A stretch of 64,000 bases of DNA from an uncultured bacterium (GCA_964588495.1 CAZPPS010000010.1:1281-65280); one strand, 5' to 3'; shown: positions 571 to 3,568, counted from the stretch's first letter. A program made the numbers and translations. The notes: generated by a model from the letters alone, not told the origin.

Positions 571-640
571 TATGGATTAACGTAATTATTATAAAATCAT
601 TGTAGGATAAAACATTATCAATAACAAATAGGAGATAATT
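571..640 (+). promoter_or_regulatory. Conserved upstream cassette, copy 1, of the Inc-like paralog array
   Basis: This AT-rich leader ends in AGGAGATAATTATG. It aligns by eye with 1074-1153 and 1786-1861 (shared TTCTTTAT..ATTAA..ATTAT..TAAATAAAACAATTATCAA..GAGGGATAATTATG). Confidence 0.6.
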
Positions 641-973
641 ATGAGTATGGGTGGAGTTAACGGCGACTACGGGACGTCAGCACCAACGCCCCACATAAAG
701 CCCCAGACTAAGTATCTTATGGTTGGAATAACGCTTTTGGCTGTAGGTATCTTAGCTGCAAGTATGGCTACTGTGGGAGGTATAAGCATGTATCAACAGA
801 TGCATAACCTGCCTGCCCTGGTTCCAGGAGGCGGTGTCGTTATAATGCTTCAAGTTGGTGTGCCTTTGGCACTCACAGGTGCGGTTGCCGGGACTATTAT
901 GCTGGCAATTGCAAAAAAAGAGCGGGAAAAAGAAAGAGCCTCATCAGGGATTATAGAGGACGATGATCTCTAG
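641..973 (+). CDS. Small membrane protein with bilobed hydrophobic domain (Inc-like), array paralog 1
   Basis: Two adjacent hydrophobic segments are present (LMVGITLLAVGILAASMATVGG / VVIMLQVGVPLALTGAVAGTIMLAI). The TAGVGGxSxYQxxH-type motif is shared with the next two ORFs, and the tail is acidic (IIEDDDL). Confidence 0.65.
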   Translation: MSMGGVNGDYGTSAPTPHIKPQTKYLMVGITLLAVGILAASMATVGGISMYQQMHNLPALVPGGGVVIMLQVGVPLALTGAVAGTIMLAIAKKEREKERASSGIIEDDDL

Positions 974-1019
974 AGCCTTTTAAATGACATGCCATTTGAA
1001 TCTCAATGGCGACTTAGAA

Positions 1020-1051
1020 AACTTCAAATTTAAAAAATTTGAGGTTTTTTT
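1020..1051 (+). terminator. Putative rho-independent terminator
   Basis: An imperfect hairpin (cttcaaattt ... aatttgagg) is followed by a T7 run. Confidence 0.5.
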
Positions 1052-1073
1052 ATTTAAAATAATAATTTTTTCT

Positions 1074-1153
1074 ATTCTTTATAACGAATTAATATTATAA
1101 TTGTATAATTAAGTGTAAATAAAACAATTATCAACCAAAGGTGAGGGATAATT
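1074..1153 (+). promoter_or_regulatory. Conserved upstream cassette, copy 2
   Basis: ttctttataacgaattaatattataattgtataatt..taaataaaacaattatcaaccaaaggtgagggataattATG is homologous to copies 1 and 3. Confidence 0.6.
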
Positions 1154-1723
1154 ATGAGTAAACCAGTTGGAGGGGGGCAAGAGGTCCCATTTTATAAAAG
1201 TAATCTAGCGATCGGCCTTGCCGGTGCCGCATTAACACTAATCTTTGCAGCAACCGCTGGCGTGGGTGGAGCGAGTTTGTTCCAACATCTGCACAACACA
1301 ACAAATGGAGTTTTGCAGTTTATGGCCAAAATTCCAGAAGGCTATGCCATTGGCATGACAGCAGGCGGCGGAGCGCTAGCTCTTGCAACCATTGGCGGCA
1401 CATCGGGGATTCTTATCCACCGCAAAGTGGAAGAAAAAGAAGTAGAAGGTCCAAAAGAAGAGCAGCCAAACCCTGAAAGATCTGATCAGTATCTGGCAAA
1501 AGGCGAAAGTTTGCAAGCTATGCAAATGAAAGCTTTTCATCGTTATCGTAGTACTGATGATAGGAAACCTGATGCCTTTATCGTAATGAGACAAAGGGAC
1601 AATAAACTGGCTGTTATTAAAAACATAAAATTCAATGAGTTAGATGCTCAAATTAAACAGCTAAAAGACTTTGGCTTTAATTCAGTAGGTCGCCCTGATG
1701 CTGTCGAAATAGCAGATGATTAA
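1154..1723 (+). CDS. Inc-like membrane protein, array paralog 2
   Basis: The bilobed hydrophobic domain (AGAALTLIFAATAGVGGASLFQHLH ... AIGMTAGGGALALATIGG) is near-identical in pattern to 1862-2572. The C-terminal module FHRYRSTDDRKPDAFIVMRQRDNKLAVIKNIKFNEL is also shared. Confidence 0.7.
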   Translation: MSKPVGGGQEVPFYKSNLAIGLAGAALTLIFAATAGVGGASLFQHLHNTTNGVLQFMAKIPEGYAIGMTAGGGALALATIGGTSGILIHRKVEEKEVEGPKEEQPNPERSDQYLAKGESLQAMQMKAFHRYRSTDDRKPDAFIVMRQRDNKLAVIKNIKFNELDAQIKQLKDFGFNSVGRPDAVEIADD

Positions 1724-1734
1724 TGTCTTTATGG

Positions 1735-1765
1735 CCCTCAGTGACAAGCAACTGAGGGTTTTTTT
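1735..1765 (+). terminator. Rho-independent terminator
   Basis: The hairpin ccctcagt-gacaagca-actgaggg is followed by T7. It is nearly identical to the hairpin at 2585-2616. Confidence 0.75.
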
Positions 1766-1785
1766 GTTTAATCATATTTTTCCAA

Positions 1786-1861
1786 ATTTATAATGAATTA
1801 ATAATACTAGTTTATAATTAATTTTAAATAAAGAAATTATCAAAAAAAATGAGGGATAATT
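1786..1861 (+). promoter_or_regulatory. Conserved upstream cassette, copy 3
   Basis: aaatttataatgaattaataatac..tttataattaattttaaataaagaaattatcaaaaaaaatgagggataattATG. Confidence 0.6.
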
Positions 1862-2572
1862 ATGGCTAATAAGGTGGCAGAGGGACAGCAGTCGTTCCTC
1901 CAGTGGGACAAAACTAATATTGCGGTGGCAGTTGGTGGTGCTTTAATAACTGCCATTTTTTTGGCTACTGCGGGCGTGGGTGGGGCGAGCTTATATCAGC
2001 ACCTACATCAAGCAGCAGGCGCAGCTTCACAGGGGCTTACAGTGATTCCACAAGGGGTCGCCATTGGCATGACGGCAGGTGGTGGGGCGTTAGCTGGTGT
2101 AACCATTTTTACCGCCGCGGGAATTATTGCCATCCGCTCGGCAACTACTGGCTATTGCGATTGGGTTTGGCCTGATGATCACCGAGAAAATAGATTGACT
2201 GGCGATCAAAATAATGGAAAAAAAGGCGAAGGAGGTAAATTGCATGCAGAGAGAAATGAAAACAAAGGCCCTGAAGGCAATGAAGCAGACAAGTCTGCAA
2301 ATGACTCACGGCGAATTGTTGTAAAAGACCCCTACATGGCCTTGGCTGAAAATTTGAATGCCGGAGAATTGAAAATATACCACCGCCGTAATTCGGATTC
2401 AGATGAGAAGGCTAGTGATGCTTTTATAGTGAGGAAAGATCGAGAAGGTAATATATATATCACGAAAAAAATAGAAATTAATAAGTTGATGCAAGAATTG
2501 TACAAGCCCGAATATAGCGCCCATACAGGAGAACACCATATCGAAAAGATTGTCATGCCCGATGATCAATAA
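1862..2572 (+). CDS. Inc-like membrane protein, array paralog 3
   Basis: The hydrophobic domain reads GGALITAIFLATAGVGGASLYQHLH ... AIGMTAGGGALAGVTIF. The C-terminal module YHRRNSDSDEKASDAFIVRKDREGNIYITKKIEINKL is homologous to paralog 2. Confidence 0.7.
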   Translation: MANKVAEGQQSFLQWDKTNIAVAVGGALITAIFLATAGVGGASLYQHLHQAAGAASQGLTVIPQGVAIGMTAGGGALAGVTIFTAAGIIAIRSATTGYCDWVWPDDHRENRLTGDQNNGKKGEGGKLHAERNENKGPEGNEADKSANDSRRIVVKDPYMALAENLNAGELKIYHRRNSDSDEKASDAFIVRKDREGNIYITKKIEINKLMQELYKPEYSAHTGEHHIEKIVMPDDQ

Positions 2573-2584
2573 TCTCGCTTATGA

Positions 2585-2616
2585 CCCTCAGTTGGAAACA
2601 ACTGAGGGTTTTTTTT
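2585..2616 (+). terminator. Rho-independent terminator
   Basis: The hairpin ccctcagtt-ggaaac-aactgaggg is followed by T8. Confidence 0.75.
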
Positions 2617-2680
2617 GTCTTTATGTGATTTTAATCGGGAGAGTCTATAATTCTTTACTTTAGTTGAGGGATTTTTTGTT

Positions 2681-3568
2681 ATGGCCATTCAGAGGACGCA
2701 CCAACAGTTAAGAGCTGAGGAAAAATGTCAGGAGGTGGAGCTGTGGGTAACTCTTGCAGTTGCAGGCTTTGCTGTGGGTTTTTTTGCAGCGTTGACAGCT
2801 TTTGGAGTTTATAGCTGGCATTCGGCTACATTATCAGATGTTTGGTATTTGACATTTACGATTGGGGGCGGAGCGGGCGCTTTTTCTGCGATTGTGACGG
2901 TGATTGCGGTCTCGATTTTGTTGGGCGAGCATTACTGTAGGAAAGAAGAGTATTACCAGAAGATTGATAGTGAGGTAAAAGAGCTTCCTGCTGATACACA
3001 AGCTTTGGAGCAAGAGTTGAGTCAATTGAAGCTTCAGCATGCAGAGGATACAAAAGCACATAAACTTGAAGTGGGTAAACTTAAGCTTCAGCTTGAGATT
3101 AAAGATGAGATAGCCAAGCTTGCGTTTGAGGCCCGAAAAAAGGAGATAGAAAAGGGACTCGAGGAGCTTAAACAAGCCAAGGCACAATATCAATCGAAGG
3201 AGCATCAGTTAGAGACAAAGCTGCAAGAGGTTGAAGAACAAAAAAAACGTTTGGAATCGATTGAAAAAGAGAGGCAGGAAAAGGTGAACGTTCTCCAACA
3301 GATGATAGAGGAACGTAAGGCTAGCAGGGAGCCAAAACCAAAAGTGACAGATGACGATAGCGATAAATTTTTAGAAGCTATCGAAAAATTAGATGTGCGC
3401 CTTCGGCGTTATGCCTGTACTTTGGTTAATGAAAATCAGGTCCAAGTTGTAGAGATAGAGGGTATGCATTACATTCTCATGCGCAAGGGTTCTGAGTATA
3501 CTCAAGAGGCGGTTTCGAGAGAGAATCTTGGGGATAGGATTGTTTTTTATGCGAGTCAAACGGGGTAA
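2681..3568 (+). CDS. Membrane-anchored coiled-coil protein (Inc-like)
   Basis: Two N-terminal hydrophobic segments (LWVTLAVAGFAVGFFAALTAFGVY / LTFTIGGGAGAFSAIVTVIAVSILLG) precede a long heptad-like charged region (LEQELSQLKLQHAEDTKAHKLEVGKLKLQLEIKDE...). Confidence 0.6.
   Translation: MAIQRTHQQLRAEEKCQEVELWVTLAVAGFAVGFFAALTAFGVYSWHSATLSDVWYLTFTIGGGAGAFSAIVTVIAVSILLGEHYCRKEEYYQKIDSEVKELPADTQALEQELSQLKLQHAEDTKAHKLEVGKLKLQLEIKDEIAKLAFEARKKEIEKGLEELKQAKAQYQSKEHQLETKLQEVEEQKKRLESIEKERQEKVNVLQQMIEERKASREPKPKVTDDDSDKFLEAIEKLDVRLRRYACTLVNENQVQVVEIEGMHYILMRKGSEYTQEAVSRENLGDRIVFYASQTG

Follow-up and report, generated by a model that had tools for sequence, protein, structure and literature searches.

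A species-restricted tandem array of putative inclusion-membrane protein genes in an uncultured Simkania-like chlamydia, and a direct-repeat promoter-like element in its leaders

What does a row of small membrane-protein genes encode when each gene keeps its own leader and its own terminator, and why have the leaders stayed so alike? These questions are raised by four plus-strand open reading frames (ORFs), here called genes 1 to 4, which lie between an ABC-F ATPase gene and a xerC-type tyrosine recombinase gene at the start of a 64,000-nt stretch of DNA from an uncultured bacterium (bases 1281-65280 of contig C10, assembly GCA_964588495.1; hereafter the window). The genome spans 2.42 Mb in 71 contigs at 43% GC and appears to belong to a Simkania-like chlamydia; the nearest named relatives of the recombinase next to the array are metagenome-assembled genomes of Simkaniaceae. 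A first-pass annotation had read the locus as a recent, cassette-wise amplification of proteins resembling chlamydial inclusion-membrane (Inc) proteins. The array belongs to a kind already known: it is one more lineage-private putative inclusion-membrane family, of which chlamydial genomes have very many, and modest when taken alone. What is new here is a probable promoter signature that would explain the conserved leader and link the array to many probable host-interaction genes.

All four ORFs are present where they had been placed (Table 1), and each has a good ribosome-binding site, with the Shine-Dalgarno sequence 6-10 nt ahead of the ATG. Kyte-Doolittle hydropathy gives two N-terminal hydrophobic lobes in each of the four proteins, in line with the bilobed topology first proposed, and the loops between the lobes measure ~12-24 residues (~14 in gene 1, ~24 in gene 2, ~23 in gene 3 and ~14 in gene 4). 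The acidic C-terminal ends DDDL, ADD and PDDQ were also read correctly. The signature attributed to genes 1-3, ATAGVGGASL(F/Y)QHLH together with AIGMTAGGGALA, is matched exactly by genes 2 and 3, whereas gene 1 has a degenerate first part (MATVGGISMYQQMH) and no second part. Despite this, the similarity of gene 1 to the other two is significant, and the hairpin domain common to the three is well supported, as none of 2000 composition-preserving shuffles reached the observed scores. The hairpin is the best-conserved part of these proteins, at ~54-60% identity versus 27% for the C-terminal module. This module is itself genuinely common to genes 2 and 3, with a score of 106 against 27 +/- 5 for shuffled sequences.

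Gene 4 was tried as a further paralog and rejected: the hairpin profile misses it, and its pairwise N- and C-terminal scores fall within those of shuffled sequences. By these comparisons it is an unrelated neighbour of the same architecture and not a detectable paralog of genes 1-3. The long coiled coil ascribed to it found no support either: by a simple Fourier analysis, heptad periodicity in its 130-residue E/K/Q/L-rich stretch is not significant, the observed power being reached in 629 of 2000 shuffles. No Pfam family reached its curated cut-off for any of genes 1-4, weak matches falling below it. For gene 4 in particular, the IncA family (PF04156) gave no match, and UPF0242_N (UPF0242, PF06785) scored 19.4 bits, short of the 33.5 bits that membership of this family demands. 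AlphaFold2, run on gene 2 with a two-sequence alignment, returned an unusable model (predicted local distance difference test, pLDDT, 40.8) and no fold for the C-terminal module.

A relative of genes 1-3 was found elsewhere in the genome, on contig C23. This 422-residue protein carries the family hairpin at its N-terminus (TSLYTNLHQAA...TAAGG; E ~2e-5 genome-wide) and is, as judged from the profile match, the fourth member of the family. Its C-terminal part matches Peptidase_C70 (AvrRpt2; PF12385) at 22.2 bits, above the Pfam cut-off of 19, C299, H374 and D392 are invariant among three homologs, and the domain has a predicted papain/C39-like fold (pLDDT 70-88); profile, Cys-His-Asp triad and predicted fold all place it with the papain-fold Peptidase C70 proteins. 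Foldseek pairs the predicted domain with C39 and papain-like toxins (E = 1e-4) and with AvrRpt2 (6hqz; E = 8e-3), at template modelling scores of 0.63-0.72 for C39 peptidase domains and 0.52 for AvrRpt2, while a sequence search of solved structures with the C23 paralog gave no match. In a homolog from another chlamydial contig, a different, unrelated hairpin precedes the same protease, and elsewhere in this genome hairpins precede F-box domains. The presence of a hairpin anchor ahead of such eukaryote-directed activities argues for delivery to the host side.

Each family protein begins with a short unstructured N-terminus, and its putative two-helix membrane hairpin is rich in glycine. Within the family, the hairpin thus looks like a reusable module, followed by almost nothing in gene 1, by a module of ~55 residues in genes 2 and 3, and by a putative protease in the C23 paralog. 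The evolution of the family would then be one in which a membrane hairpin is reused as an anchor before different C-terminal parts. We also considered whether the C-terminal module of genes 2 and 3 derives from the C23 paralog, and rejected this, because the two have only the PDDQ string in common and their similarity is not significant. Another 412-residue protein (C1:6448-7686) has an N-terminal hairpin marginal to the family profile (E = 0.0025), followed by a long helical C-terminal domain.

The DNA around genes 1-3 is homologous as well. Their leaders, which had been described as conserved, are 72-78% identical per column versus 37% expected from composition, and their alignment scores stand well above dinucleotide shuffles (z = 17 for genes 2 and 3, 9 for genes 1 and 2, 7 for genes 1 and 3). 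A hidden Markov model of the leader matches only these three places in the 2.4-Mb genome, and the DNA upstream of gene 4 has no similarity to the leaders in the same alignment test. Each of genes 1-3 is followed, as expected, by a terminator made of a hairpin and a T-run (0 of 200 shuffles fold as well). The pair that had been called near-identical, after genes 2 and 3, is 81-86% identical. The gene 1 terminator retains the TGAGG-T-run half with a compensated stem, and the 83-nt stretch 974-1056 downstream of this gene, which includes a second small hairpin, folds at -19.9 kcal/mol (z = -3.8). The inverted repeat AATTATC...GATAATT has only two exact copies in the genome, both in the array, against 0.39 expected; the corresponding leader RNA structure is a weak AU-rich stem around the Shine-Dalgarno sequence, whose arms are invariant and hence show no covariation.

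The proposal that complete cassettes were duplicated is therefore borne out for genes 2 and 3, in which leader, coding region and terminator are all homologous, and for gene 1 in its leader and hairpin domain; it does not extend to gene 4. From these homologies we conclude that the array arose through head-to-tail duplication of whole promoter-5' untranslated region-coding-terminator units.

The amplification had also been called recent, and this part of the proposal has to be abandoned. Between genes 2 and 3, identity is 39% in protein, 55% in DNA and 45% at third codon positions; their nonsynonymous divergence (dN) is 0.55 and their synonymous divergence (dS) about 1.4 (1.0-2.0 across partitions), for a dN/dS of ~0.4. 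Since synonymous sites are saturated, the duplication is old. The leaders and terminators are better conserved than these sites (72-78% in the leader versus 45% at third positions), and in the leader the conservation is patchy, falling on the two boxes of the promoter-like element described below, the -10 element, the inverted-repeat arms and the Shine-Dalgarno sequence, with variable stretches in between. Because it falls on recognisable elements, this conservation points to functional constraint on the regulatory DNA and not to youth.

The same figures could be read the other way, as a recent duplication whose coding regions diverged fast under diversifying selection or relaxed constraint and whose leaders and terminators are young or gene-converted. 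Such a history would agree with non-coding parts more similar than coding ones, with the absence of the family from three congeners (G001, G002 and G003; this genome is G000) whose flanking genes are 71-82% identical in protein to those seen here, and with a lower GC content at third codon positions (GC3) in the array genes (0.34-0.43) than in the flanking core genes (0.49-0.56). It is nevertheless quite improbable. Selection at the protein level cannot yield 45% third-position identity and a dS above 1 in every partition, a dN/dS of ~0.4 denotes purifying and not diversifying selection, and a leader that is conserved at its elements and varies between them has the pattern of constraint. By these sequence measures, the coding regions diverged as the regulatory DNA stayed constant: whole transcription units were copied, and their regulatory DNA was then fixed as the proteins drifted apart.

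What, then, do the leaders conserve? The first lead came from a search of relatives with the DNA of the gene 2 cassette, which matched a promoter region in another genus and led to the pattern TCTTTATA-N20-TATAATTAA. A crude screen for bilobed proteins retains 185 of the ~2400 ORFs of this genome (8%), and TATAATTAA lies near the start of nine of these 185 hairpin ORFs versus one among the 2211 remaining ORFs (p = 8e-10). Even with genes 1-3 excluded, it still ranks first among de novo 9-mers, and TCTTAAT is the top de novo 7-mer without these genes (30/183 versus 59/2210). The spacing from TCTTWAT to TATAAT has a sharp peak at 21 nt. Within the window, the bipartite pattern with at most one mismatch occurs four times, against 0.17 expected: in the leaders of genes 1, 2 and 4, and once on the minus strand within the gene 3 leader, which we take as a chance AT-rich match. 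The C23 paralog also has the pattern.

In the congeners, the exact pattern is found at 16 sites in G003 and four in G002, with none in the reversed control. The first downstream ORF has a hairpin at 16 of these 20 sites (p = 1e-9 versus a conditional base rate of 17%), so that in two other genomes of the genus the motif picks out hairpin genes with a precision of 80%. Positions 14-17, left free in the search pattern, read TTAA in 19, 19, 16 and 20 of the 20 sites, which reveals the element as two direct repeats, TCTTAAT-N4-nnTTAAT, which have an 11-bp period and end 10 bp ahead of TATAAT. When a position weight matrix (PWM) trained on the congeners is run on this genome, it finds 53 sites, versus two in the reversed-sequence control, and 27 of the 53 belong to hairpin ORFs. 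The non-hairpin targets include F-box, J-domain, giant and orphan proteins, with no evident housekeeping role among those examined. A stricter pattern occurs in 34 of 121 genomes, from many families of the order (~75 sites versus one in the control); in one family (f19), which has genomes of 1.0-1.2 Mb and may be the Chlamydiaceae, no such site was found.

Some individual genes behind the motif may be listed here. Two encode F-box-like proteins (C8:81227-82378, and C13_-_35900_36781 on the minus strand of C13, in reverse-complement coordinates), one of which has an N-terminal hairpin. The motif also precedes a 119-residue protein consisting of a J-domain only (C7) and a giant protein of 4469 residues (C1).

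A scan with the sigma-70 consensus did not flag the leaders, because they are without a -35 element. Three points weigh against seeing a promoter class in the motif: its upstream boxes misfit the canonical -35 element, it was first noticed post hoc and then tested on other genomes, and the genome-wide counts come from a crude ORF set and a crude hydropathy rule applied to chlamydial genomes only. Taking these into account, we consider it likely that the direct-repeat element is a real promoter class, one that would mark ~50 genes in this genome, half of them encoding hairpin proteins. The leader would then be conserved because it carries a promoter of a distinct class, a link established in part.

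Direct repeats one helical turn apart that end 10 bp upstream of the -10 element and replace the -35 element are the classic pho-box arrangement of OmpR/PhoB regulators. The array element has this architecture, with repeats of 11-bp period placed 10 bp upstream of the -10 element, and the genome holds a single OmpR/PhoB-type (Trans_reg_C) regulator gene (C12:15-755), with the canonical receiver aspartate. In Waddlia chondrophila, chromatin immunoprecipitation sequencing of PhoB detected 46-92 promoter sites, mostly at hypothetical genes, and gave the motif (T/A)NTNAA(G/A)AAANTGN(T/A)AAATTT (PMC4989314). PhoB is ~80% conserved among environmental chlamydiae and is replaced in the Chlamydiaceae by the divergent ChxR (PMC4989314), whose site TCGATCA-N5-TAGATAA is a 7-bp direct repeat (PMC3960148). 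The array element resembles the Waddlia motif in its 11-bp repeat geometry, in having tens of sites per genome and in targets that are mostly hypothetical, lineage-specific proteins, and it resembles the ChxR DR2 site in being made of two 7-bp direct repeats. Its repeat, TCTTAAT, differs from both the E. coli pho box and the ChxR TxGAxxx, and a count against its role as a PhoB site is that it fits the Waddlia motif at 11 of 14 specified positions, as judged by eye.

PhoB is thus a possible reader of the element, and we propose it tentatively. Were it so, the element would offer a handle on how environmental chlamydiae regulate their host-interaction genes, and a criterion independent of hydropathy for predicting such genes in unculturable organisms. 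A bolder and somewhat more doubtful extension is that TCTTAAT-N4-TCTTAAT-N10-TATAAT is an order-wide code, through which the conserved PhoR/PhoB two-component pair of environmental chlamydiae might switch on a large and fast-evolving regulon of Inc-like and other host-directed proteins. If this were true, the promoter sequence by itself could suffice to predict host-interaction genes of uncultured chlamydiae, whose expression would be linked to a signal that the bacterium senses.

The array family itself is narrowly distributed. The claim that it is lineage-specific was confirmed by database, relative and phylum searches. When genes 2 and 4 and the C23 paralog were compared with 5.8 billion proteins, genes 2 and 4 matched nothing but proteins of the window itself; a profile built from genes 2 and 3 recovered only its two query proteins among 1.84 billion cluster representatives; and no family member was found in 40 relatives, which include the three congeners. 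Each protein occurred on a single contig, and the organism appears to be uncultured. Across 400 genomes of the phylum, the C-terminal module has no match and the hairpin profile has one marginal match. This is a 296-residue protein of another Simkaniaceae genus (L027, G335:C4, ORF 1387-2277), in which helix 2 reads AMMAGGGFLAL (E = 6.5e-5) and the C-terminus is unrelated to the family. The match may mean that the hairpin module is older than the species. On balance, we favor the view that genes 1-3 form a family of Inc-like paralogs private to this species.

The term Inc-like needs justification. The computational definition asks of an Inc at least two helices, each 15-32 residues long, with fewer than 30 residues in the loop between them, no known prokaryotic functional domain, and a distribution restricted to Chlamydiae (Dehoux et al., 2011, PMC3048545). 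Kyte-Doolittle hydropathy gives such a helix pair, with a loop below this limit, in all of genes 1-4, helix 2 of gene 2 being marginal, and all four proteins are without a known domain and narrowly restricted. Genes 1-4 agree with the definition in every feature that can be computed; for candidates of this kind, Inc-like and not Inc would be the right term. The first 20 residues of genes 1-3 consist of S, T, P, N, Q and G to 40-55%, a statement on composition only, and the genome holds matches to the FHIPEP (SctV-type) and secretin (SctC-type) families. The loop of gene 1 is rich in turn formers and uncharged (SMYQQMHNLPALVP), which fits known Inc loops; those of genes 2 and 3 are rich in N, T, G, S and Q, and that of gene 2 has a K and an E.

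If these proteins do behave as Incs, machinery for type III secretion (T3S) would export them, the hairpin would anchor them in the membrane of the bacterium-containing vacuole with both ends toward the host cytosol, and the C-terminal part would act on host factors. Because it is the best-conserved part, the hairpin may also mediate specific helix packing between paralogs. On this evidence, the family proteins are probably inserted into the host vacuole membrane.

The genome has other candidates of this kind. The bilobed screen returned several other tandem arrays of small hairpin genes (C6:20839-22484, C9:48900-51581, C14:35192-38054, C50:9727-12038 and C53:1912-3154). In the window, a minus-strand ORF at 5840-6298 encodes 152 residues with a bilobed domain at ~41-95 and a lysine-rich tail, an Inc-like candidate unrelated to genes 1-4.

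The N-terminal architecture had been called the hallmark of Incs. It does agree with the published definition, but a two-helix hairpin is also found in ordinary bacterial inner-membrane proteins and is not specific. This opens the way to another explanation, in which the array encodes resident inner-membrane proteins, small glycine-zipper hairpins that would work in the bacterial envelope (as part of a stress response, say, as oligomeric pores or in assembly) and never be secreted; the common promoter would then mark a developmental-stage or envelope regulon and not an effector regulon. Several features speak for residence or against an Inc-like role. The hairpin is the most conserved part, an unusual trait among Incs, in which the hydrophobic domains keep their hydropathy but not their sequence (PMC3290821). 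Genes 2 and 3 have long and conserved loops, at 22-24 residues versus a mean of 8 in known Incs, and these contain charged residues, which known Inc loops do not (PMC3048545). Helix 2 of gene 2 is glycine-rich and only weakly hydrophobic, and the low-confidence AlphaFold2 model of this protein predicts its loop to be helical. Helix 2 is followed by K/R-rich flanks, in keeping with the positive-inside rule for a bacterial membrane protein with both termini inside, and the secretion of the array proteins is a sequence-based expectation.

We consider residence unlikely, in view of the company that the hairpin keeps. The same hairpin is fused to an AvrRpt2/C39-like protease and other hairpins to F-box domains, eukaryote-directed activities that would be ill-suited inside a bacterium. 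The ~8% of ORFs with a bilobed domain falls within the range of 4-10% reported for predicted Incs in Chlamydiae (PMC3048545). Functional T3S signals were detected in 90% of the tested Inc predictions of C. trachomatis and C. pneumoniae (PMC3048545), and no Pfam glycine-zipper or other membrane family matches the array proteins. An Inc-like role hence remains our preferred reading.

The setting of the array is that of a variable slot. The ABC-F and xerC genes are neighbours in all four genomes of the genus, and the DNA between them is different in each (Table 1). The 1499-residue slot protein of G002 has PARP catalytic, ankyrin, DUF294 nucleotidyltransferase and TPR domains and resembles a large effector. 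The palindrome between gene 4 and xerC is a member of a dispersed repeat family with dozens of copies in the genome, several of which adjoin other hairpin-gene arrays (e.g., C14:38100, C9:52052 and C12:20091). An Rfam scan of positions 400-3800 gave nothing relevant. Farther along the window, on the minus strand at 13450-20961, lies an ORF of 2502 residues with no Pfam match at E <= 1e-5.

This setting could suggest that a mobile element or prophage carries the array as its cargo, for instance as holin-like or toxin-like small membrane proteins beside an integrase: a tyrosine recombinase gene adjoins it, gene 1 is like class II holins in size and topology, and the contents of the slot vary, with a transposase fragment in G002. 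The recombinase is, however, a conserved chromosomal gene of xerC type, which stands beside the same ABC-F gene in 4/4 genomes of the genus, and this synteny led us to reject the mobile-element reading. No phage, lysis or toxin-antitoxin genes lie nearby, no direct repeats flank the array, and the promoter class is common to ~50 dispersed chromosomal genes. All told, a mobile origin is extremely improbable.

Table 1. Features of the array and its surroundings (positions in the window, + for plus strand), and contents of the slot between the ABC-F and xerC genes in four genomes of the genus.
Feature	Position or extent	Strand	Description
ABC-F ATPase gene	1-498	minus	flanks array on gene 1 side
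Promoter-like element, gene 1	564-597	+	TCTTTAT 564-570, GATTAAC 575-581, -10 TAAAAT 592-597; PWM 21.0
Inverted repeat ATTATC / GATAAT, 6 bp	614-639	+	brackets gene 1 Shine-Dalgarno GGAG; read from sequence
Gene 1	641-973	+	110 residues; short N-terminus, two-helix hairpin ~24-48 / 62-90, charged tail ending EDDDL
Terminator, gene 1	1016-1056	+	AU-rich hairpin and T-run; 3' half homologous to other two
Promoter-like element, gene 2	1076-1109	+	TCTTTAT 1076-1082, AATTAAT 1087-1093, TATAAT 1104-1109; PWM 30.2, second best in genome
Inverted repeat AATTATC-N14-GATAATT, 7 bp	1126-1153	+	around gene 2 Shine-Dalgarno GAGGG
Gene 2	1154-1723	+	189 residues; hairpin 17-41 / 65-88, short acidic linker, ~55-residue C-terminal module, end IADD
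Intrinsic terminator, gene 2	1733-1767	+	GGCCCTCAGT...ACTGAGGGTT and T-run; -16.5 kcal/mol
Promoter-like element, gene 3	1785-1818	+	degenerate AATTTAT 1785-1791, AATTAAT 1796-1802, TATAAT 1813-1818; PWM 21.2
Inverted repeat AATTATC-N13-GATAATT, 7 bp	1835-1861	+	around gene 3 Shine-Dalgarno
Gene 3	1862-2572	+	236 residues; hairpin 18-42 / 66-91, ~65-residue low-complexity linker, C-terminal module, end PDDQ
Intrinsic terminator, gene 3	2583-2618	+	-20.9 kcal/mol
Promoter-like element, gene 4	2618-2651	+	TCTTTAT 2618-2624, TTTTAAT 2629-2635, TATAAT 2646-2651; exact match to strict pattern
Gene 4	2681-3568	+	295 residues; hairpin ~21-45 / 59-82, 130-residue E/K/Q-rich helical stretch, ~70-residue C-terminal domain
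Palindrome, ~100 nt	3567-3668		between convergent gene 4 and xerC; -62 kcal/mol
xerC-type tyrosine recombinase gene	3668-4630	minus	flanks array on gene 4 side, convergent with gene 4
Slot cargo, this genome	3.2 kb		hairpin-gene array
Slot cargo, G001	~2.4 kb		DsbD-like protein
Slot cargo, G002 (L017, G002:C1:728600-735100)	~4.9 kb		1499-residue protein (ORF 953-5452, minus strand) and transposase fragment
Slot cargo, G003	~0.95 kb		beta-barrel outer-membrane protein

Compared with the Inc proteins described so far, the array proteins are alike in having an N-terminal bilobed domain with a loop under 30 residues, an N-terminus that is short and polar and a C-terminus that varies, in their restriction to a narrow lineage, in their clustering with similarity inside the cluster, and in a genome that encodes components of the T3S families. 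They have no sequence homology to any described Inc, and they differ further in that the loops of genes 2 and 3 are conserved and the hairpin is the best-conserved part. Tandem clusters of Inc paralogs, with similarity within a cluster, are known from C. pneumoniae, C. felis and C. caviae (Lutter et al., 2012, PMC3290821). Unlike such clusters, the array is not an operon, each gene forming a separate unit with its own promoter and terminator. The C23 paralog has parallels of its own. Its protease-like domain is only 9-19% identical to solved structures of AvrRpt2-type C70 and C39-like proteases, and the three array genes have no protease. Simkania negevensis has membrane-anchored effectors, deubiquitinases with hydrophobic or transmembrane regions (PMC10643670), and the C23 paralog, with its hairpin joined to a Cys-His-Asp papain-like domain, is built along the same lines as these effectors and as the AvrRpt2-type C70 and C39-like proteases.

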